From contig JANOQI010000057.1 of assembly GCA_031414775.1 (NCBI GenBank), forward strand, positions 37,709 to 101,708: 64,000 nt of DNA, in the 5' to 3' direction. The position numbers were made by a program, and so were the translations under genes. The notes beneath the pieces are model-generated. The model ran no database searches, was not told where the DNA came from, and worked only from the letters and a program-made list of their open reading frames with translations. The DNA comes from Synechococcales cyanobacterium VAR_4_metabat_354 (lineage in GTDB: Bacteria; Cyanobacteriota; Cyanobacteriia; Cyanobacteriales; Chamaesiphonaceae). Positions 13,279 to 25,983 of this stretch are shown here, one piece after another (positions within the stretch are counted from its first letter, which is position 1; the number at the start of each line of letters is the position of its first letter).

Positions 13279-14079
13279 ATGGCCACTGCAAACGCTGCTA
13301 CCCCCGCTGCCGACAATCGCAACACGGAATCAATATCCTTATTGATGACCTATCACGAAAAACCGAGTGTCCCGGTTCGCAACAAATTAGTCCTACTCAA
13401 TGCTGGTTTAGTTCGACAAGTAGCCCATCGTTTGAGTCGCCAGTGTGTAGAAAATTACCAAGATTTAGAACAAATTGGTTACTTAGGCTTGATTCGAGCG
13501 ATCGAGCGATTCAATCCTTATCAAGGCTGTGCCTTTAGCTCCTTTGCCATCCCCTACATTCGCGGCGAAATTCTGCACTTTTTACGGGATCGGAGCAGTG
13601 CCGTCAAGATTCCCCGCCGCTGGCAAGAACTAAAAAGAGAAGGCGAAAAAATGCGGCAACATCTCACCTTAATTCTCGATCGGAAGCCCAGCGATGTCGA
13701 AATTGCTGATGCCCTGCAAGTTACCATTGAAGAATGGTGCGCAGCCCAAGCCGCTGATCGCAACCGTCAAACTTTGAGCTTAGATGCCACGATCGGTCAC
13801 ATGATGGATTATCCAGTAACTTTAGGTGATAGTCTTCCTGATATTTATGAACAGAATCGGCAACATGTAGAAGAAGAACGTCAACAGCTGGTAGGTATGA
13901 TTAATCAGCTAGAGCGAAAAACGCAACAGGCGATCGAATGTGTCTATATCCAGGGGATGCCGCGAAAAGAAGCTGCCGAAAAAATTGGTGTTAGTCCCAT
14001 GACTGTTACCCGCCACTTGCAAAAAGGAGTCAAACAGCTCTCCACCATGATGAATAACAATTGTAGTGTGGCAATCTAG
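13279..14079 (+). CDS. sigF: Group 3 sigma factor, SigF/SigJ family (from memory closer to the SigJ type)
   Basis: DLEQIGYLGLIRAIERF, AFSSFAIPYIRGEI, region 4 HTH GVSPMTVTR. Confidence 0.88.
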   Translation: MATANAATPAADNRNTESISLLMTYHEKPSVPVRNKLVLLNAGLVRQVAHRLSRQCVENYQDLEQIGYLGLIRAIERFNPYQGCAFSSFAIPYIRGEILHFLRDRSSAVKIPRRWQELKREGEKMRQHLTLILDRKPSDVEIADALQVTIEEWCAAQAADRNRQTLSLDATIGHMMDYPVTLGDSLPDIYEQNRQHVEEERQQLVGMINQLERKTQQAIECVYIQGMPRKEAAEKIGVSPMTVTRHLQKGVKQLSTMMNNNCSVAI

Positions 14080-14086
14080 CAATTAG

Positions 14087-16171
14087 TTATTTTTCTGGCT
14101 GGAGATCATCCACTCGATCGATAATCGTCAGTTGTCCACCGCGCAAGTCTTGGTAATCAAATTCTACGCGGCGATCAAGAGCATAAGGCTGGTTTCCCTG
14201 TTCATTGCTACGGCGTTTGTTAAATCCAAAAGAACGCGTTGTCAACCGTTGGGAAGCAATACCCTGCTTCAGTAGATAGTTACGAACTGCTACTACCCGG
14301 CGCATTCCTAAAGCTTGGTTATAGGCTTGGGAGGCACGAGGATCGGTATGACCAGACAAATCCACAGAAATGTAAGGATGGTCTTTTAGCACCCGGGCAA
14401 TTTCGATTAGTACTCGCGCCGAAGCTGGGCTAATAGTAGATTTGTTTAAGGCAAAATGCACATTGCGCGAAATGGTGAGCTTAGTCACAATCGAGGGTGA
14501 CACAACTGCCAACGGTGGTGTAGGAACTTCATCTGGCGACTTCACTGTCAAAGAAGTCTCGGCCAGAGCACAATCGGCTGGAACCAGGTAAGTAGCTTTA
14601 GGCTTAACAGCAATACCCGGCATTGTAATCACGATATTATCAGCTGGTTCGGAAGTACCATATTTACGATCGCTGGCAATCGCACTTACAACAGTACCAG
14701 GCAATAAATTTTGGAAAGTAGCTTGGAAGCGACCCTGGGAGTCGGCCATCACCTTTTTCAAGGGTTGAGATAGCGGCCCATTATTACTATCATCGGGGTT
14801 GACTTGATAAATTTCCACTTCCGAGCCAGGATCAGCAACTCCATCTAAATTGACGCGATCGCCAATCAGATAAAATTCTGAGGCTAAAAAGCGGGGGGCA
14901 TTAATGGCAGCATTCCCAGTATCGGAACGACGATTTTCGGTATTACGCGGCGGGTTAAGGCCATCACCATTTTGGAAGTCTTCGACAGCTTCGTTCCGAT
15001 AAGTAATTAGATCAATACTTAAACCAGCGATTTTTTGAAAGCGATTGTTCGTAATCAGGTTGCGCCGGGATAAAGATTCTTCACTGGCAGCAAAAGCTGT
15101 AACGGCCACCCCAGAACCATTTTGGAATTCGATCGAGTTGTTAGTGACCTGGTGATCGTTGCCCATTAAGTAGATAGCCGCTCGCCGTAACCGCCGACCA
15201 TTAGATTGCAGATGATTATTAGTAATTTTGACACTGCCAGCAGCAGGCTTAAAGACAAAAATTCCGCTACCATCGTTACCACAAATCAAATTACCTTGAA
15301 TTTTGTTTTGTCTCAAATTGCCTTCTAAGCGAATAGCATCAGGCATGCCTTGCGAGCCATTGCCGAAAATAGCGTTATTGGCAATTAATAAATTGTTGGC
15401 ATTGGCTTGGCTAATAATACCACTAGCACTATGGTATCCGATCGCATTGTGCCGAATCGTGGTGCCTTGGGAATTAAATACATACACCCCAAAATCGGAG
15501 GTTTGGTCAGGGATATTCCGATTAGGTAGAATACCTAGCCAGTTATTTTCAATTAGCACCCGCTGGGGAGCCGACCTGTCATCAAGCTGGGGGTAATTAC
15601 TGGTACCGACAAAAATATCTGCAGCTGGGATGTTTTGGGTCGCAGCTTGGTTGCCGACCCGAAAGCCATAGATACTCAGACCAGTCACCGTAATATCGTC
15701 AGCCATAATCGACAGACCACGATTAATTTGCTGGCCGGGAGCCGGAGTAATTTCCACCGACGGCGTAGCAAAAGTCAGATTTTGAATAGCTGCTTGGCTA
15801 CGGCTCTTGCCACCATCGATCGTCACTTTACTCTTAATAATCGCCGGTAGTTCGGAGCGCAGAGCAATCTGGCTTTGGCCTTCAGATAATTGAAATTCCA
15901 GAAGATGACCGTTAGCGTTGGTCAGTACTTTTACTTGAAGTTGTTCAGCAGGGCTGAGTCGATCGAACTGAAGTTGGCCATTACTGATACTGATGGCTTC
16001 TCTCAAAGTGAGAAATTGATCAGCAACAATTTCATCGCGATTACTGTTGATAGTAATTTTGAAATATTGCTCTGGAGCCGCGAGACTGACTGATGGCCAT
16101 AGTCCTACTAGACTAACCAGAAACAGCCGCGACAGGGAAGAATAACTAATCGGGAATAAAGTGTTTTTCAT
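14087..16171 (-). CDS. Secreted beta-helix (pectin-lyase-like) + Ig-like + C-terminal OmpA peptidoglycan-binding protein
   Basis: Signal peptide, CSLREA-like LTLREAI, Asn-ladder repeats (NNAIFGN, GNLICGN), VHFALNKS..GHTD..RRVE. Confidence 0.85.
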   Translation of the reverse strand: MKNTLFPISYSSLSRLFLVSLVGLWPSVSLAAPEQYFKITINSNRDEIVADQFLTLREAISISNGQLQFDRLSPAEQLQVKVLTNANGHLLEFQLSEGQSQIALRSELPAIIKSKVTIDGGKSRSQAAIQNLTFATPSVEITPAPGQQINRGLSIMADDITVTGLSIYGFRVGNQAATQNIPAADIFVGTSNYPQLDDRSAPQRVLIENNWLGILPNRNIPDQTSDFGVYVFNSQGTTIRHNAIGYHSASGIISQANANNLLIANNAIFGNGSQGMPDAIRLEGNLRQNKIQGNLICGNDGSGIFVFKPAAGSVKITNNHLQSNGRRLRRAAIYLMGNDHQVTNNSIEFQNGSGVAVTAFAASEESLSRRNLITNNRFQKIAGLSIDLITYRNEAVEDFQNGDGLNPPRNTENRRSDTGNAAINAPRFLASEFYLIGDRVNLDGVADPGSEVEIYQVNPDDSNNGPLSQPLKKVMADSQGRFQATFQNLLPGTVVSAIASDRKYGTSEPADNIVITMPGIAVKPKATYLVPADCALAETSLTVKSPDEVPTPPLAVVSPSIVTKLTISRNVHFALNKSTISPASARVLIEIARVLKDHPYISVDLSGHTDPRASQAYNQALGMRRVVAVRNYLLKQGIASQRLTTRSFGFNKRRSNEQGNQPYALDRRVEFDYQDLRGGQLTIIDRVDDLQPEK

Positions 16172-19100
16172 GGCGCTGACGACTCCTGTTTTTGAACGGG
16201 GGTCAACGATGGTTGACTAACATCCCCAGTGACTTGTGACTCTTTCTTGGGAGGATTTAACGGTTGTTGTGAACTAGCATTCTTAGTCACTTGCGATTCC
16301 TGTTGTTGAACAGGGTTCAACTGTTGACGACCAAAGCCGCCAAATAATTCATTAACTTTGACAGTCAAGCCGACATATGGACCATTGGCATTCCGACCAC
16401 CGCCATTCGGGTCATCAGATACCCCTAAGCTATAGCCAGCGGAGAGCCGCAAATCGGGAGTGAGATAGTAGCCAGCTTCGATCGCTGCACCAACTTCACT
16501 TTGGCCAGTGGCGAATTGATTCAACCAGCGCACATCGCCAGTCAGATCCCAGTTGTAGCCGAGGCGGTAAGTAGCCCGCAGTTGACTGATGCCGATGGCA
16601 CTTCCCGCTGTCAGGGACTCATCCAGATAACTGGTAGCGTTACGCAAAGCATATTTGCCTGCAAATTCCCATTGCCAGTTCGGGGCATAAATTCCTTCTA
16701 AGGCTAAGGTGTGGTCTTCGGAGCCAGTACCGACACTGGTTAAGATACTAGTAGGCAACAAGGATGGATTTTTGCGATATTGATAACTGAGAAAGCCATT
16801 AAATTCATCGCTAACTGGATTGCGGAAGGCCATGCCCAGCTTGAGGTTAGTGGTAGCTCCCAATTGGCTAGTAGTTCCCGATCCAGCATCCCGAATAATC
16901 TGGTTGGCGGCACTGGATTGCTGGAATCTAAACAGAGCAGTCAATTCGGGTGTTAGCTTACCCGTGGCACCAGCCGAGATGTTGCTACTGCTTGCTAAAT
17001 TAGAATTGCGGTATTCATAACGAGCATTAGCTTGGAAATTGGGGTTGTCGGTATAATTGACAGCCACACCATAACTATCGCCGCTAGTTACCCCTAATGA
17101 AGACGACGTTTGGCCTAAGCTATAGGGTTGAGAATATTGCTGACCAGCACCAGTAGAAACATTCACGCCACCACCAATCACTCGATCGTAATTCAGGTCT
17201 AGCTTTAAACCAGGACTGAGGACAATCCCTTGCTGCATTCCTACTGATCCGATCGATTGAAACGGACTGAGTGAATAGCGGCCTGTCACCTTAGTACTAG
17301 GAGTCAAACTATAACTACTGTCGAAATCCAAACTCGTATAGCTAGTATCACCATACTGGGCACTGGAAATCAGGTTTTGACTGAGGCCAAGTTTGATGCC
17401 GGGGAAGACTGTCCAGTCAATGCCTAAGGCACTACGGTTCGGATAAACAACATCTTGCTGGCTGCTCAGGTTGGTTTCGTTTTGAGCACGTAAGGCCAGA
17501 GTATTAGTCAGTGGCCAGCTAAAGCGCGATCGAATCTGATCGGAAGACACATTGGCTTGATTTGGATCTAGTGTCAATCGGTCTTGACGATTACGATTGA
17601 CATAATCCACATCTAAAGTGGCGGTGCCAAACCGCTGCTGAACACCAGCTGTAATGGTTCTTAAGTCATTATCAACTAAGCCAGTTGCCGGATTGACGGG
17701 AGTAAGTAGGTTGGCAATGTTGCCATTAACCAACGGTGGCGCACCCCGATTTTCTTCTCGATCGACCTGTAACTTTAAGCTAGTGCTGTCACTCAGCCTG
17801 GTTAACAGATCGGCACCGTAGCGAGTTTGACCCGGTACAAAGCTGGTAGTAGCATTATTGGCAAAACCCGCTTCGCTACTGCGTAGATAAGCACGACCGG
17901 TAGTAGCATCGCTAAATTTAAACTGGCCTTCCAGGCGCATCGCGCTGCCAGTAATGGGGCTACCAGCTCCGGTATTGTTAGAAGATCGAGCATATTCAGC
18001 CACGATATTACTAGTGGAACCCAGAGAAATCAGGGCATCCGCACCAAGAATACTAAAGTCGCGAATACCTTGATTCTCTTGTGTCCAGCTGGCACCGATC
18101 CAACTTTCTTGACCAGCCGATCGATTGAGATTGTATTGAGCGCGACCACCATAAATATTGCTATTAGTACCGCTAGCATACTGATAAGTAGCCACTAAAC
18201 GACGCACTAAGATAGTGCCATTATCAGCAACACTCGTCCGTAATAGAGGACGACGGAGTAAGATGGTACCTCGATCGTAATCTACCTCGTAGTCTAGACC
18301 TCGATTCAGAAACTCTTGTTTAACCACAGTGCCTGGTCGATCGAGTTCTTCTGATTCGATCATCAGGTTTTCGCTACCACCCAAAATCAGGCGCTGCGAC
18401 AAGAAATAAATGCCACTGGTGCCATCGGGGGCAATATTGTCCCGCTGGAAGCCCTGGACATTATCACCATAGAAGCCACTTACTAAAAGGTCACCAAAGT
18501 TGTAGTTTAGTTTAGCACCGTGCAAGTTGCGGTTGGTGGCGGTGAATTGCTGCGATCGATTAGCAAACTCGTTGGTGCCATAATCGCCCCACATGGCCAT
18601 ATTTGGCACATTTCCTAACACCCCAGTAGAGCTTTCTACTTTTAAGAAAACGCTATCGCGGGAAGGAGTCAACACGTCTACTTTAGAAGTATCACCATAA
18701 ACTGGATAAACTTCTTCGCAAGATTGACTACTGTAAGTATCACGAGAGAGTCGATCGTTAGTACCACACAGTTTATTAAGTGGCCGATCGGTATTTAGAG
18801 CACCAGTTACCGCCCAGTCTCCAATGCGACTAGTGGCAAAAGCCTGGCCTCGTACTTGGAGTTGAGTACTATTATCTCGATCGATCGGCAAGAATTCGGT
18901 GAAAGGCCGATAGTAATCGGTACCCCGCGCTCCCAGGCGGAAGTCTACTACACCAGTAGCGATCGAACTGCGTAAGTTGGTTTCAAACTGTACCTGGGCA
19001 AAGGCTTCCAGATTTAGGTTGGTGGCACGGACGCGGACTGTTTGGGCATCTAAGCCTGCTCGCAACTTGGCAGTGAATCTTCCTTTTTGGACAGGTACCT

Positions 19101-19788
19101 GAAATCCCGGTTGATCCTTGTTAGTGTCAATACCGGCAAACTCACCAGCACTAGTATAGAGAGTAACGATGCCATCTTGTTTGGTAACGTTACCATTGTC
19201 ATCGAGTAGCTGACCATCTAAGTTAACTAGAGACCGACCATCAGCTGGAATGCGAGTTTCGGCGCTGTTCAGTTGGATCTTAGTTGGTGTCCCGGTTACT
19301 TGGATCGTAGTGGTGGATACTTCGCCTTGGCTGGTTTTGGCGGTAACAGTATTTTTACCAGCACCGAGGGATACCCCATACCAAGTCTGGGTAATTAGCT
19401 TAGTGCGGCTATCAGTTTCGGTACGACCAATTAGTTTACTATCGACTGGTTGATTGTTGACTTTTAGCTCAACTGTGCTACCAACTTGATATTGTAAAAC
19501 GACGGTAGTCGCTGGAATATCTAAGACACTATTGGGGGTAGGAGCCAGAATCTGGACGGCTGGCGAACGCTGATTTTCAGGAGCGGGCGGTGCTGGCGCT
19601 GTTCCTACAGGAACAACTATAGTAGGTGTAGCTGGTGAAATATTTTGTTCAGCTGGGGCTGACGATTTCACTGGTGCCACGGCATCAGTTTGAGCAAGGG
19701 CAGGGTTGACTAGTAGCAGTCCGAGGCTACTAATTGCTGTACCCAGGCATAAAGCTCTGAGCATTGTGACTATCAGTTGATGCTGCAT
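16168..19788 (-). CDS. Large outer-membrane beta-barrel protein with N-terminal Ig-like domains
   Basis: Signal peptide, Pro/Ala linker, IPADGRS (Big_1-like), YPVYGD, then a long run of amphipathic beta strands ending GPYVGLTVK. Confidence 0.75.
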   Translation of the reverse strand: MQHQLIVTMLRALCLGTAISSLGLLLVNPALAQTDAVAPVKSSAPAEQNISPATPTIVVPVGTAPAPPAPENQRSPAVQILAPTPNSVLDIPATTVVLQYQVGSTVELKVNNQPVDSKLIGRTETDSRTKLITQTWYGVSLGAGKNTVTAKTSQGEVSTTTIQVTGTPTKIQLNSAETRIPADGRSLVNLDGQLLDDNGNVTKQDGIVTLYTSAGEFAGIDTNKDQPGFQVPVQKGRFTAKLRAGLDAQTVRVRATNLNLEAFAQVQFETNLRSSIATGVVDFRLGARGTDYYRPFTEFLPIDRDNSTQLQVRGQAFATSRIGDWAVTGALNTDRPLNKLCGTNDRLSRDTYSSQSCEEVYPVYGDTSKVDVLTPSRDSVFLKVESSTGVLGNVPNMAMWGDYGTNEFANRSQQFTATNRNLHGAKLNYNFGDLLVSGFYGDNVQGFQRDNIAPDGTSGIYFLSQRLILGGSENLMIESEELDRPGTVVKQEFLNRGLDYEVDYDRGTILLRRPLLRTSVADNGTILVRRLVATYQYASGTNSNIYGGRAQYNLNRSAGQESWIGASWTQENQGIRDFSILGADALISLGSTSNIVAEYARSSNNTGAGSPITGSAMRLEGQFKFSDATTGRAYLRSSEAGFANNATTSFVPGQTRYGADLLTRLSDSTSLKLQVDREENRGAPPLVNGNIANLLTPVNPATGLVDNDLRTITAGVQQRFGTATLDVDYVNRNRQDRLTLDPNQANVSSDQIRSRFSWPLTNTLALRAQNETNLSSQQDVVYPNRSALGIDWTVFPGIKLGLSQNLISSAQYGDTSYTSLDFDSSYSLTPSTKVTGRYSLSPFQSIGSVGMQQGIVLSPGLKLDLNYDRVIGGGVNVSTGAGQQYSQPYSLGQTSSSLGVTSGDSYGVAVNYTDNPNFQANARYEYRNSNLASSSNISAGATGKLTPELTALFRFQQSSAANQIIRDAGSGTTSQLGATTNLKLGMAFRNPVSDEFNGFLSYQYRKNPSLLPTSILTSVGTGSEDHTLALEGIYAPNWQWEFAGKYALRNATSYLDESLTAGSAIGISQLRATYRLGYNWDLTGDVRWLNQFATGQSEVGAAIEAGYYLTPDLRLSAGYSLGVSDDPNGGGRNANGPYVGLTVKVNELFGGFGRQQLNPVQQQESQVTKNASSQQPLNPPKKESQVTGDVSQPSLTPVQKQESSAP

Positions 19789-19791
19789 GAC

Positions 19792-21396
19792 TTATTTGAC
19801 CTCACGCGCGGTAGGTGTAACGCCAAAGTTCATACGAGCTATTCCACCTGGTGCTAGTTTTACTAATCGCGATCGACTGTTTCGTTCGCTAAAATATAAG
19901 TTGGGAGCAGGGCTGTATCCGGGTAGGCTGCTGAGGTCTAGTGCGCCAGTCCGATAACCAGCGACGACTGATTGCACGGAGAACAGGCCATTGGGATCGG
20001 TAGTGATTCGGTTGCCATCATCCATGAAGATGACGGCGTTAGGAATACCGGGTTCGTTGCCCTGTTGTTGGCCATCGAAGTTTTTATCGACGAAGACACG
20101 GCCAATGAGGGTGCCGGTATCACGAATCAAACCTGGGCGAATACTCAATGTATGAGTAGCCGGACCATCAATTAGAACAGTAATATTGCTATTATTATTG
20201 GCACTACTAACGTTATTGTAAGTACCGCTCAAGGTGGCAAGATTAAGACCAGTACCACGAATGGCATCTGTGCCTAAAGTGACGGCGTAGACCAAATCAA
20301 CAACCTTTCCAGCAGGAATGACAAATTTAGGTGCGCCGACACTACTACACAAACCATTAGCTATAGTTATCGGTACGAGCAGAGCTGTTACAGGAGTAGT
20401 CCCGATCTGGAAGCAAGCAATATTGCCTTCTTGCTTCAGAGTAACTGGCTCAGTCCTCAGACCAAAAGGAGTTGTACTACCAGGAAGAATCCTGTCATCG
20501 TACCATTGAGCCTTAATCGAATTCGGACGTATCGACATCCCGAGAGGTAAAGTATCTGTAACTATTGGGTTTAAAATATCATCAGGAGAATTATTCTTGA
20601 GGGCAATGCGATAAACTACGGTATCACCTACTTCAGCAGTAGCTCGATCGGCACTTTTAGTAATCTTGGCAGGTTGGCTGTCACATACTCCAATCCCAAC
20701 CAAAGCGACTCTCGCCGCATCACTGACATCCACCACAACATTTTGGGTAACTCCCTCAGTAGTACTAAGCGGTTTGCCATCGAGAGAAGTAGCTCTGTAA
20801 CTCAAGATACCGCCATTAAAGCCAGTAATATCTATCCGGACGCGACGTTCACCATAAGTGGAACCAGCTGGTGTTTTAACGATGAGAATATAGCTCTTGC
20901 CGATCGCAATTTGGCTCCGATTAAAAAGGAAGTTGTATCGACCTTCACCATCGGGATCGAGCGGGTATGGATTAATGTTGTCAAGGTTCGGTGGAATACG
21001 ATCTTGCTGAGGAGAGCCGGCAGTGGAAGTAAGCTGTAATAAAGTAGTGGGGTCTAGATTGTTAGGTGCTACATTGTACAATCCAACAGAGAAGTCTTTA
21101 TAACTAGATAAGCGTTCACCCTGACAGCCTGTGATAATACCCAGTGGATCGATTAATCCAGAAGGATCAGCGATAACTTTATTGCTAACACCCTCGATTA
21201 GGGTGTTTGGATTACCTGGATCGACGTATTGGTAATCAGCTTCGTTGATAATTTTTGGTGGTGGTGGCGGATCTACTATGGGTGGGTTATTTTGAGCGAT
21301 CGAAGGCTGAGTAGAAACCAAAGTGGCCAGAACCAGCCCCGTGACACAATTTTTAAATAAATGAGATTTTGGCCGAAAGGGCTGGAATCTGGACAC
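19792..21396 (-). CDS. DUF11 domain + SdrD-B-like secreted protein
   Basis: GTG at 21396 with AGGA RBS; signal peptide; ITKSADRATAEVGDTVVYRI..DTLP (DUF11); GRVFVDKNFDG.QQ.NEPGIP. Confidence 0.85.
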   Translation of the reverse strand: MSRFQPFRPKSHLFKNCVTGLVLATLVSTQPSIAQNNPPIVDPPPPPKIINEADYQYVDPGNPNTLIEGVSNKVIADPSGLIDPLGIITGCQGERLSSYKDFSVGLYNVAPNNLDPTTLLQLTSTAGSPQQDRIPPNLDNINPYPLDPDGEGRYNFLFNRSQIAIGKSYILIVKTPAGSTYGERRVRIDITGFNGGILSYRATSLDGKPLSTTEGVTQNVVVDVSDAARVALVGIGVCDSQPAKITKSADRATAEVGDTVVYRIALKNNSPDDILNPIVTDTLPLGMSIRPNSIKAQWYDDRILPGSTTPFGLRTEPVTLKQEGNIACFQIGTTPVTALLVPITIANGLCSSVGAPKFVIPAGKVVDLVYAVTLGTDAIRGTGLNLATLSGTYNNVSSANNNSNITVLIDGPATHTLSIRPGLIRDTGTLIGRVFVDKNFDGQQQGNEPGIPNAVIFMDDGNRITTDPNGLFSVQSVVAGYRTGALDLSSLPGYSPAPNLYFSERNSRSRLVKLAPGGIARMNFGVTPTAREVK

Positions 21397-21456
21397 GAGA
21401 TTATTCCTGTAATAATTAATCGATGGGAGCTTTCGAGGGGAACCCCCCATAAGTAA

Positions 21457-21963
21457 TTAGCGAATCCGAACTTCGTAGCTCAAATTGCTTTGAGACCGGG
21501 GTGCAACACTACTGGTAAAAGCCCAACGGACGTTGGTATAGTTGCCAGCAGCTGCTGGCTTTTTATCGAACATTGGTTGTGCGCTATAGCTTCTACCACC
21601 ATCAGTACTAAAAGTCAGTTGTGCGCCTTTAACAGGAGTAGCAGAATTCAGGACGTAGGACGTGCCGGGGCGAATTTTCTGGTTGAGAATTAGTTTGTTC
21701 ACTGGCTTGGTGCTAACGTTGTTGGCAGCAATTCGATAGACAATGACATCACCAGGCTTAGCACTAGCAACGGATACTAGCTTGAAGCCTTTTTTATCAG
21801 CAACTTTTTTGAATTGAGAAAGCTTCAGCTGAATAGATTTCTTGGCGGCTACTTGCGCTCCTACTGGCTGAGTGAATTGGCCGATAACTGGCAAATTACC
21901 GCTGACTAAAACAGTAGTGGATAGTGCCATCATGGCGATGGTGGTAGAAAGTAAACGTTTCAT
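21457..21963 (-). CDS. Small secreted single DUF11-like domain protein
   Basis: ATG at 21963 (MKRLL signal peptide, GGAG RBS); AKPGDVIVYRI, FSTDGG, YTNVRW, LSYEVRIR. Confidence 0.82.
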   Translation of the reverse strand: MKRLLSTTIAMMALSTTVLVSGNLPVIGQFTQPVGAQVAAKKSIQLKLSQFKKVADKKGFKLVSVASAKPGDVIVYRIAANNVSTKPVNKLILNQKIRPGTSYVLNSATPVKGAQLTFSTDGGRSYSAQPMFDKKPAAAGNYTNVRWAFTSSVAPRSQSNLSYEVRIR

Positions 21964-22017
21964 ACGTGGGATTACTCCGGTATAGATGTAAAAGGTCGGG
22001 CACAGCCCATGCAAACT

Positions 22018-22026
22018 AGTATTCCC
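22018..22026 (-). promoter_or_regulatory. GGGAATACT SigJ/SigF-type promoter motif
   Basis: Exact GGGAATACT on the minus strand, about 55 nt upstream of the ATG at 21963. Confidence 0.55.
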
Positions 22027-22148
22027 AGAGAGGATGCTAGACTTGCTATGGCTTAACGGGCAAGAATAAAAATATATTGGGGCTATGAGTAATAGCCGTT
22101 TTATTTATGTACTTAATTAATTATTTACTGGTCTAGATCTAGAAGGCA

Positions 22149-22176
22149 GGAGATAGAAACCGTGGCTTCTATCTCC
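22149..22176 (-). terminator. Stem-loop directly after the 822-aa DUF11 gene
   Basis: GGAGATAGAA-N8-TTCTATCTCC perfect 10-bp inverted repeat; no clear U-tract. Confidence 0.6.
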
Positions 22177-22185
22177 CGTAAGTAT

Positions 22186-24654
22186 CTAGTTCAATTTACG
22201 TTTGAAGCTAAATGTACCAGTGCTACCAGGAGCAACTACAGTTGTGACAGTATCAACATATTTAGTGATGTCAGTAGCAGCAGTTGTACCAGATTGGTCA
22301 ACCGAAGTAGTACCACCAGCTGGGTCTTTAAACAAACCAATGGTGGAGGTAGTGTCTGGATCAACCGCTGAACCTACGACGTTACTAGTATCTAGCGCGC
22401 CGTTACTATCAGTATCTTTAGCCCAAGTATTAGTACCAGTAGTACCATTCTCAGTAATTACTAAATTGGCAGCCTTCATGACAGAGCTACCAGTACCAAC
22501 TAACTTATCCGAAATATTTTCGTAAGTAATGCGATACTCAATGATATTGCCGGAAGCTGGCTTCTTATCGGCAGTGCTGAAGTTAACGTCAGCTGGTAAA
22601 ACTGCTGGGCCGGTGCCTTGCAAAATACGAGTTTCTTTGGTCAGTTTGACGAAACCGGTGTAAACACGATCGATCGTTTTGTTAGTAGCTGTTGGTGCTG
22701 CCAGTGCAATATCCCCACCAGTAGGAGCAGTTACAGTACCACCAGTAAAGGCATTAATTACAACAGGGAAACTTTCTAGTGGCTTGGTGGTAGCATCTTG
22801 AGCCAGGTCAACGCTGACTTGGTATGCAGCAAGCGCATCAGGTGCCACAGCATTTAAGGTAACTGGGTTAGTAGCGCTAATGGGGCCATTGGCATTACTA
22901 CCAACACCAGAAAGTGGCTTGAAAGTAAAACCAGTAGCAGTGGCTACATAAGTAGCTTCTTGACCATTAGCAGAAATTTTAACTTCAGTGCCTACTGGTA
23001 ATGGATCACCAGCTAATAATTCTGGCAACAGAGAAATGTTAGCAGCAGCACCACCAGTATTTCTGACAGTATTGTTGAAGCCAGCAGCAGCTGGATCAAA
23101 AGTAGCCGTTGGTGCAGTACCAGCAGGTACGGTGGTGGACTTATTCGTAAAGTCATCGTTAGTGTTAGTTGGACCAATTGCTTCTGGTACACCTACTGGA
23201 CCATTCAACAGGGAATTTGTTGCTGCAGCAGTGAACGTATATTTGTATTCGTTGATTTCACCAGCAAGGCTACCAACAGCACTGTTGTCGTTAGCAGTAT
23301 CAACCACAAACGCCGGATCAGCTACACCAGTGGTAATAGCACTGGAGCTAGGAGCAGCAGGCGTAATGGGAGTAGCCGAATCGAAGTTGTTAGGAGTTTG
23401 GTCACCAGATTCGTCATAAACAATCGCAGTTGGTGAACCACCAGCAGTAGTACCAAAAGCTTGTGCCATACTATCGATCGTGTAGGTAGTAGCAGTAGGC
23501 GCAACACCACTAGTGACAACCTTGAAGTTGAAACCAGTAACTTCGGCACCAGGCGCTACAACAGCAGCATTAGTATCGGTGATAAAGCCTACGCGCTTGT
23601 AAACTGCTGCTGGATCAAAGGTTGTTACCCAGGCAGTAGTCGGATCGTTAGCAAATGTGCTGGTTGAAGTAGTTGTGTAAACTGCTGTCCAGCCAATTGG
23701 TGCAGTCGCTGCTGCGGCTAACTTAGTACCATCAGGAATTGCACTAGAAACCAAGATCCGGTTAACGGTGCTAGGGCCAGAGCCAGTGTCTACTGTCAGA
23801 GCTGAACCGGCTAAAGCACTAGGAGTAATACCAGAGTTAGTAATATCTGTGCTCGCAACTTTCAAACCAAGGCCGTAGCTGATTACATCATCAGATAAGT
23901 TGGCTGGAGTAGCATTATCACTAACGCCAGTACGAGTTTCAGTGACAGTGGCCAAGGCAATATTCTTGACTACGGTACCAATATTAACTGATTGAGTCGC
24001 ACTACTTTCGCGTTGACCGTTGGCTGGAGCACCACCAGTAGTATTAACGTTATTGGGGTTACCATCAGCTACCAGGGGCTGGTTTGGTTGGTCACTAGGA
24101 GTGTTACCTAATTGAACGGCAATAGTAGAGCCAGTACCATTATTAACAGTCACTTCTGCGCGGACTTGGACAACACCACCGGCAGCAACGTTCGGTACAT
24201 CTACACCAGCTGCTGGTACAGGCTTCCAGATATTATCAGCAGGGTCTAGGTACTCCAATTTGTTAAAAGTACCAGGACCGGTCACAGTGGGCTGACCAGG
24301 AATGCGTATAGTAGTGGAAGTGTTACCAACGTTGGTAACAGTGTAGTCAAACTCTAGCTTGTCGCCAACAGTAACAGCACCACCAGGGTTAGTTTTATTA
24401 ACGATACCGCTACCGGAAACATCAATACCGGCAACATCAGCAACAATCACCTTAACTTCGTTAGAAGTAGCGTTGATGGGAGTACCGGGGTTACCTGGAT
24501 CATCATAGCTAGCAGTAGCCGTGTTGGAAATAGCAGTACCGGCAGCTGTCTCAGCCAACACTGGTGCCACTAACTGTAAAAGACCACCACTCACCAAAAG
24601 AGTAACCAGAAGAGGGCGAGAGTATTTCATCATATTAATATTGTTTACTTTCAT
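22186..24654 (-). CDS. Large secreted Thr/Ala/Gly-rich DUF11-repeat protein, candidate major fibre subunit
   Basis: Signal peptide, TAAGTAISNTATASY N-terminal motif, GDKLEFDYTVTNVGN and GNIIEYRITYEN DUF11-like repeats; T-ending codons such as GCT/ACT/GGT are conspicuous. Confidence 0.85.
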   Translation of the reverse strand: MKVNNINMMKYSRPLLVTLLVSGGLLQLVAPVLAETAAGTAISNTATASYDDPGNPGTPINATSNEVKVIVADVAGIDVSGSGIVNKTNPGGAVTVGDKLEFDYTVTNVGNTSTTIRIPGQPTVTGPGTFNKLEYLDPADNIWKPVPAAGVDVPNVAAGGVVQVRAEVTVNNGTGSTIAVQLGNTPSDQPNQPLVADGNPNNVNTTGGAPANGQRESSATQSVNIGTVVKNIALATVTETRTGVSDNATPANLSDDVISYGLGLKVASTDITNSGITPSALAGSALTVDTGSGPSTVNRILVSSAIPDGTKLAAAATAPIGWTAVYTTTSTSTFANDPTTAWVTTFDPAAVYKRVGFITDTNAAVVAPGAEVTGFNFKVVTSGVAPTATTYTIDSMAQAFGTTAGGSPTAIVYDESGDQTPNNFDSATPITPAAPSSSAITTGVADPAFVVDTANDNSAVGSLAGEINEYKYTFTAAATNSLLNGPVGVPEAIGPTNTNDDFTNKSTTVPAGTAPTATFDPAAAGFNNTVRNTGGAAANISLLPELLAGDPLPVGTEVKISANGQEATYVATATGFTFKPLSGVGSNANGPISATNPVTLNAVAPDALAAYQVSVDLAQDATTKPLESFPVVINAFTGGTVTAPTGGDIALAAPTATNKTIDRVYTGFVKLTKETRILQGTGPAVLPADVNFSTADKKPASGNIIEYRITYENISDKLVGTGSSVMKAANLVITENGTTGTNTWAKDTDSNGALDTSNVVGSAVDPDTTSTIGLFKDPAGGTTSVDQSGTTAATDITKYVDTVTTVVAPGSTGTFSFKRKLN

Positions 24655-25077: not shown

Positions 25078-25983
25078 CTATATTTCCTGAGACTGGATGG
25101 CTTGGACTCGATCGTTAGCGAAGCGTTCCACCTCGGAAATTGATAGCTCTGTAATTGAGGCAACATCTTCTACAGACATACCCTTTTTCAACATTTTCAG
25201 TGCAATCTCTTTTTGAGTTTCCTGCTGGCCGCGCTTAAAACCAATTTTTTCAACACTGGTAACGTAAGTCATCTTTTTATCCTCTTCGTAAGCTTTAAAG
25301 TCATTCCAAAAACTGTTACTCAATCCTTCAGGCAAAACCAGAATCCAGTCAATGAACTTAAACAAATCTACTACCTGGCTTCTATTGTAGCCCCTTTCAT
25401 AGAGTCCCCTCACCAGCTGAAACTTCCAATTCTTCCGCTCCTGATCCTTACTTTTCATCTCCTGCGCCTTTAGGTGAGCCATCACCACAACCGCAAACGG
25501 GTTGGCATTAGACTCCAATTCTTCCCATTGCTCTTGGTAATCTAGCAACTTCACTGCGGTGAAATTAAATTCCAACGAAGAGCCTGGAGCAGTTAATAAA
25601 TGCTCTTTCGGTCGCCAGGTAGAATTAGAATCACACAAGATAGCTAAACTGCTGGGTAATTGATTGAACCTATCATAGATACGCATCGCATAGGTCAGCA
25701 TCCTCTCTTCAAAGTTTTTCTCTTTGCTAGCTTGGATTTCCAAGTGCAAAAGTAGCATCAAAGACTTACCCCGCCTGAGCTTCACCTCCACCAACTGGTC
25801 GGCGTATCTCTTACCCACTTCAGCATTGGGCGAGAGCTGCTGAAACTCCTTGTCTAAAAAGACTGGCGGCGATTGCCAATCAATTAATTGTGCAATCATG
25901 GGAAAGAAGAATTCGATGGCTTCTGGAAAATATGCACGCAGCATCGACTTCCAAGGGGAATCTGCATCATTAAATTTAGCCAC
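25078..25983 (-). CDS. Rpn/YhgA-like (transposase_31-type) PD-(D/E)XK protein
   Basis: DSPWK, FLDKEFQQL, YADQLV, HLEIQ, NPFAVVVMAHL, C-terminal IALKML..HTH. Confidence 0.85.
   Translation of the reverse strand: MAKFNDADSPWKSMLRAYFPEAIEFFFPMIAQLIDWQSPPVFLDKEFQQLSPNAEVGKRYADQLVEVKLRRGKSLMLLLHLEIQASKEKNFEERMLTYAMRIYDRFNQLPSSLAILCDSNSTWRPKEHLLTAPGSSLEFNFTAVKLLDYQEQWEELESNANPFAVVVMAHLKAQEMKSKDQERKNWKFQLVRGLYERGYNRSQVVDLFKFIDWILVLPEGLSNSFWNDFKAYEEDKKMTYVTSVEKIGFKRGQQETQKEIALKMLKKGMSVEDVASITELSISEVERFANDRVQAIQSQEI

Follow-up and report, generated by a model that had tools for sequence, protein, structure and literature searches.

A cyanobacterial gene cluster for a putative surface fibre with subunits probably joined through a naturally split isopeptide-type domain

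Overview

A cluster of five genes, here termed A to E, lies head to tail on the minus strand between positions 14087 and 24654 of a 64,000-nucleotide (nt) stretch of DNA from Synechococcales cyanobacterium VAR_4_metabat_354 (the window, to whose positions all coordinates refer). The products of the first four, A-B-C-D, are proposed to form a surface fibre of a two-membrane bacterium. The joints of this fibre would be the two halves of one immunoglobulin (Ig)-like domain of the CnaA/CLIPPER type, assembled and locked as described below, an account that we consider fairly likely. The subunits probably plug into each other head to tail.

In the proposed mechanism, A would be exported by Sec and its signal peptide cleaved. 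The first ~40 residues of mature A (E35-V74) would then provide the last two strands of a domain begun by the ~155 C-terminal residues of A, each incoming subunit inserting its hairpin into the open C-terminal domain of its predecessor. The continuous tandem-domain stalk of fused relatives would thereby be recreated, save for the nick N822/E35'. K673 in the first strand of the acceptor, E735 in the strand pairing with donor strand 1, and N44 in donor strand 1 would lock the joint by a self-catalysed Lys-Asn isopeptide bond. Protein C, which has a donor hairpin and complete domains only, would end the chain. Its translation would be coupled to that of D, and D, as a giant outer-membrane barrel, would serve both to export the fibre and to keep it attached. 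At the opposite end, B would form the tip, acting solely as an acceptor and probably bound non-covalently. Of this scheme, we infer the assembly in trans, the length of the polymer, the covalent nature of the lock, and what B, C, D, and E each do.

The donor motif

The features of A that are needed for the argument are the following.

22186..24654, minus strand: gene A, 822 amino acids (aa), putative shaft subunit, both donor and acceptor (open reading frame (ORF), DUF7925 match, homologues)
24553..24654, minus strand: A residues 1-34, predicted signal peptide (basic n-region, hydrophobic core, V-L-A before E35, invariant A34)
24433..24552, minus strand: A residues 35-74, candidate donor hairpin of two strands (invariant residues and complex-model contacts)
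24454..24531, minus strand: A residues 42-67, the motif of the original prediction (ORF translation)
24523-24525, minus strand: A N44 codon
24460-24462, minus strand: A N65 codon
23383..23955, minus strand: A residues 234-424, DUF7925 domain (Pfam, 182.4 bits)
22189..22659, minus strand: A residues 666-822, candidate acceptor domain without its last two strands (conservation, model interface, split relatives)
22636-22638, minus strand: A K673 codon
22450-22452, minus strand: A E735 codon

The original prediction, an earlier reading of the same DNA, had described a motif shared by the 822-aa and 552-aa proteins (A and C) just behind their signal peptides. The motif is present with the positions and sequences given there, at residues 42-67 of the 822-aa ORF (24531-24454) and residues 67-92 of the 552-aa ORF (21252-21175). 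Profile-profile comparison by hhalign aligns the two at 96% probability (E 4e-9), and the N-terminal motifs of A and C are therefore homologous, beyond chance likeness. Over the whole genome, a hidden Markov model (HMM) of the A motif detects 4 of 5210 ORFs of at least 80 aa at E<0.01, namely A, C, and two proteins of a second locus (see below).

The motif is strongly conserved. In 63 aligned A homologues, I42, N44, Y50, S64, N65, and V67 are invariant, as is A34 ahead of the mature N-terminus, and N69 of C is found in all 12 C orthologues. A wider survey was made in 80 further cyanobacterial loci anchored on C, a set overlapping in part with 12 loci of relatives that were fetched separately. 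In these 80 loci, a regular expression of the motif matches 78 of 84 A ORFs, all six misses being 5'-truncated, and 74 of 80 C ORFs, Val occupying the small-residue position in four of the six misses. The same expression matches no B N-terminus (0/78 ORFs; 19 have an unrelated internal match at residues 117-146), and the donor motif is likewise absent from the N-terminus of B in the 11 orthologues of the syntenic loci.

Protein A and its natural fusions

The sequence of A ends in ...FSFKRKLN and that of B in ...LSYEVRIR. As the original prediction had pointed out, both stop just before the Asn strand that the complete DUF11 domain of C retains (G-x-G-x-N-x-A). F815, F817, R819, and N822 at the C-terminus of A are invariant in the 63 homologues.

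Relatives of A exist in which the domain and the motif are contiguous. In another cyanobacterium (locus L031), residues 638-972 of a 2709-aa ORF match A 482-822 at 47% identity, and 7 residues past its ...QRKVN comes the motif L-S-N-N-A-N-A-T-Y-E-D...T-S-N-S-V. The 218-aa fused domain of this protein, searched against 1.84 billion representatives, yields 268 hits at E≤0.001, the best 150 of which were sorted by form. Nine of these 150 display the fused form, a contiguous internal domain followed by the motif. The split form is found in 63, plus 8 that had first been filed as "other": here the domain stops at about query residue 175, which is the very C-terminus of the protein, and the motif lies at about residues 40-80 of the same protein. 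A further 64 possess the C-terminal domain with no detectable motif stretch, many of them being short fragments, and the remaining 6 are of other kinds. Since the split forms all end at one query position, the cut site is always the same.

Four of the nine fused proteins carry the C-terminal part of A directly followed by the mature N-terminal part of an A-like unit. Thus, P0200 runs from A 229-822 into A 35-297, and P0198 from A 482-822 into A 37-425. These junctions join the C-terminus of A to the residue after the signal peptide (the E35 equivalent onward). The tandem fusions argue that A derives from an adhesin of tandem domains that was severed within one domain, at a single point, and acquired a signal peptide. 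On the sequences of the fused relatives and on the models described below, the N-terminal motif is the predicted missing end of A's last domain, the two being halves of one domain. That the N-terminal Asn hairpin completes the C-terminal domain of A, as originally proposed, is thereby borne out in silico. The possibility that A's last domain is a C-terminal secretion domain was set aside, as the fusions reveal a structural half-domain. A search of PDB sequences with the fused domain returned chance rows only (E ~0.6).

Structural models of the proposed A joint

The AlphaFold2 (AF2) monomer of A has a mean predicted local distance difference test (pLDDT) of 85.6 and a predicted TM-score (pTM) of 0.52. 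Foldseek of the whole model returns multi-Ig proteins at low TM-scores (PrgB, integrin legs, antigen I/II, and a CfaB pilin fusion), which are uninformative on the joint. The joint itself was modelled as a complex of A 650-822 with A 35-233, in three runs and with three controls. As domain 1 is included in the second fragment, the hairpin was free to stay with its own first domain. The ipSAE is 0.86 in every one of the three runs, against 0.00 for the best control, with a contact agreement between runs of at least 89% and a partner pLDDT of at least 89. The ipSAE mark was calibrated on known cases, being reached by 116 of 157 solved complexes and by 2 of 215 mismatched pairs.

In this complex model, residues 40-74 of A form two strands inside A's last domain. 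The donor touches the acceptor with residues 35-37, 40-51, 53, 59-60, and 62-74, and the acceptor interface comprises residues 666-675, 696-701, 726-737, and 821-822. Donor residues 46-50 pair with 730-734, in the strand bearing E735, and residues 64-71 lie between 671-673, in the strand bearing K673, and 696-699. Domain 1 contributes further contacts with the acceptor through residues 111 and 211-213, as expected of consecutive domains in a stalk. Strand insertion of the N-terminal peptide into the C-terminal domain, a check that the original prediction had named, is thus seen in the model, which supports binding of the hairpin by the acceptor. The opposite outcome that it had named, folding of the motif into its own first domain, is not what was obtained, the hairpin having left domain 1 for the acceptor.

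The same models bear on a very improbable reading, in which the motif is a shared N-terminal element (an export or recognition signal for D, or strands of its own first domain), the ends of A and B are unrelated, and no insertion takes place. In its favour, the motif stands directly behind the signal peptide in both A and C, and the invariant C-terminus of A (F815, F817, R819, N822) could be a sorting signal. However, the nine fused representatives carry the motif directly after the domain, far from any N-terminus. Besides, the hairpin leaves domain 1 and binds the acceptor in the complex model, and in the monomer it is predicted with a far lower pLDDT than domain 1.

The candidate isopeptide lock

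The residues that would lock the joint are conserved throughout the family. In the 63 A homologues, K673 and N44 are present in 63/63, E735 is Glu in 62 and Asp in one, and N65 is Asn in 63/63. Among the best 150 of the 268 hits, the Lys is found in 141/145, the acid (E/D) in 141/149, the N44 equivalent in 95/96, and all three in 86/96, where alignable. The mapping of the triad was made by analogy with K265/D299/N403 of C, an invariant set (12/12) whose Asn lies in G-x-G-x-N-x-A, and with the 9IFR residues listed in PMC12617251. By this analogy, K673, E735, and N44 would occupy the Lys (first strand), acid (beside the Asn strand), and Asn (penultimate strand) positions of a CnaA-type domain. 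A putative Lys-Asn isopeptide bond perhaps locks the joint.

An internal control is offered by another domain of the same protein. A contains a DUF7925 domain (Pfam PF25546, residues 234-424; 182.4 bits versus a cut-off of 26.5), for which an intramolecular K/D/N isopeptide triad is predicted in the domain descriptions of PMC12617251. This triad is K/D/N in 41 of the 63 A homologues and lost as a set in the other 22; in the present copy it is replaced by E239/S304/S395. On these sequences, its disappearance looks like a coordinated loss of the isopeptide bond within one clade. Isopeptide triads of the A family can therefore vanish, and together, whereas the joint triad is never lost in the same 63 homologues.

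Protein B

21457..21963, minus strand: gene B, 168 aa from MKRLL, small DUF11-type protein without donor motif

The ORF of B as listed is 185 aa long and starts from a TTG at 22014, the start MKRLL at 21963 (168 aa) being more likely. B matches the NCBIfam model TIGR01451 (31.1 bits, cut-off 24) and stays below the cut-off of Pfam DUF11 (14.6 versus 24.6 bits). Foldseek relates its model to the CLIPPER structure 9ifr (E 3.7e-3, TMt 0.54). As B has no donor and ends where A ends, an acceptor-only role at the tip or as a cap is reasonable, and B is taken as the candidate for it on its sequence. Any joint in which B did accept a strand would probably be non-covalent.

In a 471-aa protein encoded on one metagenome contig (P0344), a shortened A (signal peptide, donor motif, and partial acceptor domain) stands in frame with mature B. 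Either the two genes were joined by a deletion in nature, or the chimera is an artefact of assembly.

Proteins C, D, and E

19792..21450, minus strand: gene C, 552 aa, donor-only protein, putative base or terminator
21175..21252, minus strand: C residues 67-92, donor motif (N69 codon 21244-21246; invariance, hhalign)
20155..20679, minus strand: C residues ~258-432, complete DUF11/CLIPPER domain with its own triad
20656-20658 (K265), 20554-20556 (D299), and 20242-20244 (N403), minus strand: codons of the C triad
16168..19788, minus strand: gene D, 1206 aa, putative giant outer-membrane β-barrel with an N-terminal Ig-like domain (weak profile matches, Atlas neighbours)
14087..16171, minus strand: gene E, 694 aa, β-helix and OmpA-type peptidoglycan-binding domain, accessory (Pfam)

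C matches DUF11 (PF01345) with 39.3 bits at residues 263-309 (cut-off 24.6) and TIGR01451 with 51.5 bits (cut-off 24), followed by a weak SdrD_B-like end in Pfam; a search against PDB sequences gave nothing at E≤1. By ORF coordinates, the stop codon of C overlaps the start of D, and that of D the start of E. D itself has a weak Invasin_D3 match as its sole Pfam result. Its orthologue in locus L030 exceeds the cut-offs for Big_1 (36.3 bits) and Invasin_D3 (35.9 bits) and shows sub-threshold porin-type matches. The nearest Atlas clusters of D were automatically named TonB-dependent receptor or outer membrane protein (score 0.99), and PDB sequences gave merely weak Ig-like stretches of β-galactosidases. 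These matches make D a probable outer-membrane barrel of very large size, preceded by an Ig-like domain, and it may serve as the assembly and anchoring pore. E possesses OmpA (56.5 bits) and Beta_helix (46.9 bits) domains.

Some D orthologues are longer, with extra C-terminal sequence (1623 aa at L028:6941-11809; 1808 aa at L030:7319-12742). The L030 extension includes a faint OmpA-like stretch (E 0.16); D may here be fused to an anchor resembling E.

Of the 12 fetched loci of relatives, 11 keep the order A-B-C-D; of the 80 cyanobacterial loci, 71 have exactly ABCD or ABCDE. In the 99.96%-complete genome, no match was found for Usher (PF00577; the E. coli control was positive), for the PapD-like chaperone (PF00345, PapD_N), or for Sortase (PF04203), in agreement with the sortase-free assembly that had been predicted. 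The C-termini of A (...KRKLN) and B (...VRIR) display neither an LPXTG nor a membrane anchor.

Possible arrangement of the joints

A number of observations weigh against the proposed fibre and its split joint. All the evidence is computational. The DUF11 label that the original prediction gave to A's last domain is unsupported by sequence: no Pfam family matches A 638-822 or the fused 218-aa form at E≤10, and hhalign gives the domain a probability of 4.8% with C's DUF11 and of 37% with B. Nor does hhalign align the A motif to the N403 strand of C's complete DUF11 (1.2%). In the AF2 monomer, residues 41-70 of A form four short strands at pLDDT 61-73, the first domain being above 90. The complex model, built from fragments, does not distinguish closure in trans from closure in cis. 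Its 25 lowest-error contacts place K673 against S64, N65, and V67, without N44; since the invariant N65 is among these best contacts, it is a candidate for the reacting Asn beside N44. In two fused representatives, Thr replaces the Lys.

Further points of this kind concern the minor proteins. For B, the prediction of an incomplete DUF11 acceptor holds as to where the protein ends and as to its TIGR01451 match, but no invariant Lys or acid occupies the canonical DUF11 positions among the orthologues, and the AF2 model is a compact eight-strand sandwich (pLDDT >89 at residues 41-168) in which no open groove can be seen. Its superposition on 9ifr (VIA Z 8.0, rmsd (root-mean-square deviation) 2.7, 91 aligned) is tied with those on many Ig-like domains, and the one longer relative of B that was found, the A-B chimera P0344, is uninformative on a groove. 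The barrel of D is proposed from weak matches, no Usher profile matches D or its L030 orthologue, and gene E is found behind D in fewer than half of the loci (2 of the 11 syntenic ones and at least 31 of 80).

Since fragments were modelled, the complex would look identical if the hairpin of A completed A's own last domain. A would then be a ring monomer with a discontinuous, circularly permuted domain, any bond being intramolecular. Discontinuous isopeptide domains with inserted domains do occur in Gram-positive pilins, according to the domain ranges given in PMC12617251, and a closed form of A could be a storage state before strand exchange. Nevertheless, we regard closure in cis as improbable. 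C possesses the hairpin with the invariant N69 but complete domains only, and its donor therefore requires a partner on another chain. In the fused relatives, the domain is part of a linear chain, flanked by the counterparts of A's third and first domains; such a chain, with a nick, is what head-to-tail polymerisation would reproduce, whereas closure in cis needs a ring. The halves also stand in permuted order in A, last strands first, which is just what the cutting of a tandem array gives and is awkward for a ring. Finally, the monomer model gives the hairpin a pLDDT of 61-73 only.

The predicted completion of one subunit by the hairpin of the next thus fits the fused relatives and the donor of C, a protein devoid of an open domain. 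The prediction of a polymer is less secure, as these data do not distinguish a polymer from a single chain. In the latter case, the system would be a three-piece adhesin, with the hairpin of A inserted into B and that of C into A, forming a single B-A-C chain rooted in D, with no A-A joints. The operon does encode exactly one acceptor-only, one donor and acceptor, and one donor-only protein. Moreover, the donor of C differs from that of A, the A-motif HMM detecting C at E≤0.01 in merely 3 of 80 orthologues, and the joints of a B-A-C chain could therefore be specific. An arrangement limited to B-A-C is nonetheless unlikely, as the hairpin of A was modelled into A's own acceptor (ipSAE 0.86, best control 0.00) and fused relatives bear tandem A-like units. 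It also presupposes that B accepts a strand, itself a putative ability. The stem-loop behind the A stop codon (see below) would fit an excess of A over the other subunits, a point that is only suggestive. Taken with the A-hairpin/A-acceptor model and the natural tandem units, it favours A-to-A joints, and with them the polymer, in a suggestive manner.

Comparison with known systems

The closest parallel is BsaA of Clostridium perfringens, an exchange-and-lock fibre. In BsaA, too, an N-terminal segment inserts as a strand into the next subunit, a donor Asn and an acceptor Lys/Glu are proposed to form a self-catalysed intermolecular isopeptide bond, and no sortase is involved. It differs by its fold and family, by its single-membrane host, and by a signal peptide cleaved by SipW; no TasA-type Pfam family is found among the matches of A, B, and C at E≤0.01. 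By contrast with BsaA, the cyanobacterial system would have a split CnaA/CLIPPER-like joint, a two-strand donor, an 822-aa multi-domain rod, and a giant outer-membrane barrel.

In SpyTag/SpyCatcher, one strand, the tag, bears a reactive residue; once docked in the remainder of the domain, it reacts of its own accord. Pairs of this type result from the cutting of a CnaB-type domain in the laboratory. In the cyanobacterial case, the cut would be natural, the fold CnaA-like, and the halves located at the two ends of a self-assembling subunit.

Chaperone-usher pili, such as type 1 (Fim) and P (Pap) pili, offer a further comparison. Their tip subunit only accepts a strand and their terminator only donates one, the same logic as is proposed for B and C; an outer-membrane protein is also encoded in the operon. 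In contrast, a hairpin of two strands serves as the cyanobacterial donor, and in the long rod only the last domain acts as acceptor. Chaperone-usher pili are not known to have a covalent lock, while the conserved Lys/Glu/Asn of A suggest one. Background passages on these pili are found in PMC11821415.

The original prediction had cited the Sulfolobus thread as its precedent. The thread of Sulfolobus acidocaldarius (Saci_0406) is indeed formed by head-to-tail donor-strand complementation with a proposed intermolecular isopeptide bond and no known enzyme, as described in sections of PMC9715654. The proposed bond runs from Asn57 of one subunit (n) to the N-terminal amine of Asp24 in the next but one (n+2); the thread subunits have an unrelated fold, and their host is an archaeon without an outer membrane (same sections of PMC9715654). 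It is therefore a looser precedent than BsaA, although strand complementation with a proposed isopeptide bond is common to both.

Within the system, C is a bona fide DUF11 protein with a triad, and the Asn and last strand of CLIPPER/DUF11 domains (PF01345; PDB ID: 9IFR) resemble the donor hairpin, as far as the domain data of PMC12617251 go. In the CLIPPER/DUF11 and DUF7925 domains listed in that source, the bond lies within one chain, the only form in which these building blocks have been published. In the cyanobacterial system, the Asn strand lies apart from the Lys/acid part, either at the other end of the same protein or on another one.

The A-B-C-D system is outside the BsaA, thread, and chaperone-usher families, as it combines another fold, a two-strand donor, a long rod, and an outer membrane with a putative dedicated barrel. 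It has been considered whether it represents an undescribed pilus class, in which a tandem adhesin cut inside an isopeptide domain is rejoined extracellularly as a natural Tag/Catcher polymer, covalent and independent of sortase, chaperone, or usher, with a new giant-barrel export and root and with a second locus providing alternative tip adhesins. This is put forward tentatively, as slightly more doubtful than probable. No published description of a split isopeptide form or of the cyanobacterial system was found in a literature search that left subscription journals uncovered.

If the proposal is true, completion of a split isopeptide domain would be a new assembly route for surface fibres of outer-membrane bacteria. 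Each joint would possibly be self-locking, which would explain a covalent fibre where no sortase is found. Evolutionarily, a long single-chain adhesin would have become a polymer by one cut and the addition of a signal peptide. The joints would provide natural orthogonal CnaA-type Tag/Catcher pairs for protein engineering. A four-gene cluster conserved in many filamentous and biofilm-forming cyanobacteria, one of whose products is a 1200-aa outer-membrane protein, would also be given a role.

A second fibre-like locus

The same genome harbors a second fibre-like locus (contig C36:76276-93525; L033:276-17525, plus strand) encoding five large secreted proteins of 1317, 1179, 866, 681, and 1222 aa. 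The five share a similar domain at their C-terminus (...S-Y-G-F-V-R-F-x-x-x-V-K), with a resemblance to B (hhalign 93.5%, E 2.4e-7). The 1179- and 681-aa proteins start with the donor motif (A-motif HMM, E 2.6e-10 and 3e-8, respectively); the other three have none. Their domains include GEVED, DUF11, β-helix, and SdrD_B. The locus contains no C-like or D-like gene, the genome holding only one of each. The five proteins may be alternative tips and shafts built on the same principle.

Each of the two fibre loci adjoins one of two paralogous 266-aa sigma-70-family factors (window 13279-14079, plus strand; C36:94716-95516, plus strand), which are 81.6% identical over 266 aa. No such sigma factor is seen in the fetched parts of the 12 relatives' loci. 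The pair may be dedicated regulators.

Distribution and operon layout

Homologues of A number 351 at E≤0.001, the named ones being cyanobacterial (Nostoc, Calothrix, Pseudanabaena, Fischerella, and others), and of 201 genomes sampled from the phylum, 20 contain a relative of A. For C, the closest named relatives come from Synechococcales and Chamaesiphon genome bins.

22147..22178, minus strand: 14-base-pair perfect stem-loop directly 3' of the A stop codon, within the 171-nt A-B spacer

The segment 22040-22190 folds with a minimum free energy of -37 kcal/mol (z -3.68), one of 200 shuffles being as stable. A second small hairpin with a T-rich tail lies at ~22081-22097. In the A-B spacers of other loci, a hairpin is found in 9 of 11, and the spacer is only 6-9 nt long in 2 of 11. 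A strong hairpin after the gene of the major subunit is a feature of pilus operons. Set between the gene of the shaft and those of the minor subunits, the two hairpins together may act as an attenuator or stabilise the RNA.

A 301-aa ORF immediately upstream of the operon (25078-25983, minus strand) displays weak matches to PD-(D/E)XK/YhgA-like transposases and to helix-turn-helix domains, all below cut-offs.

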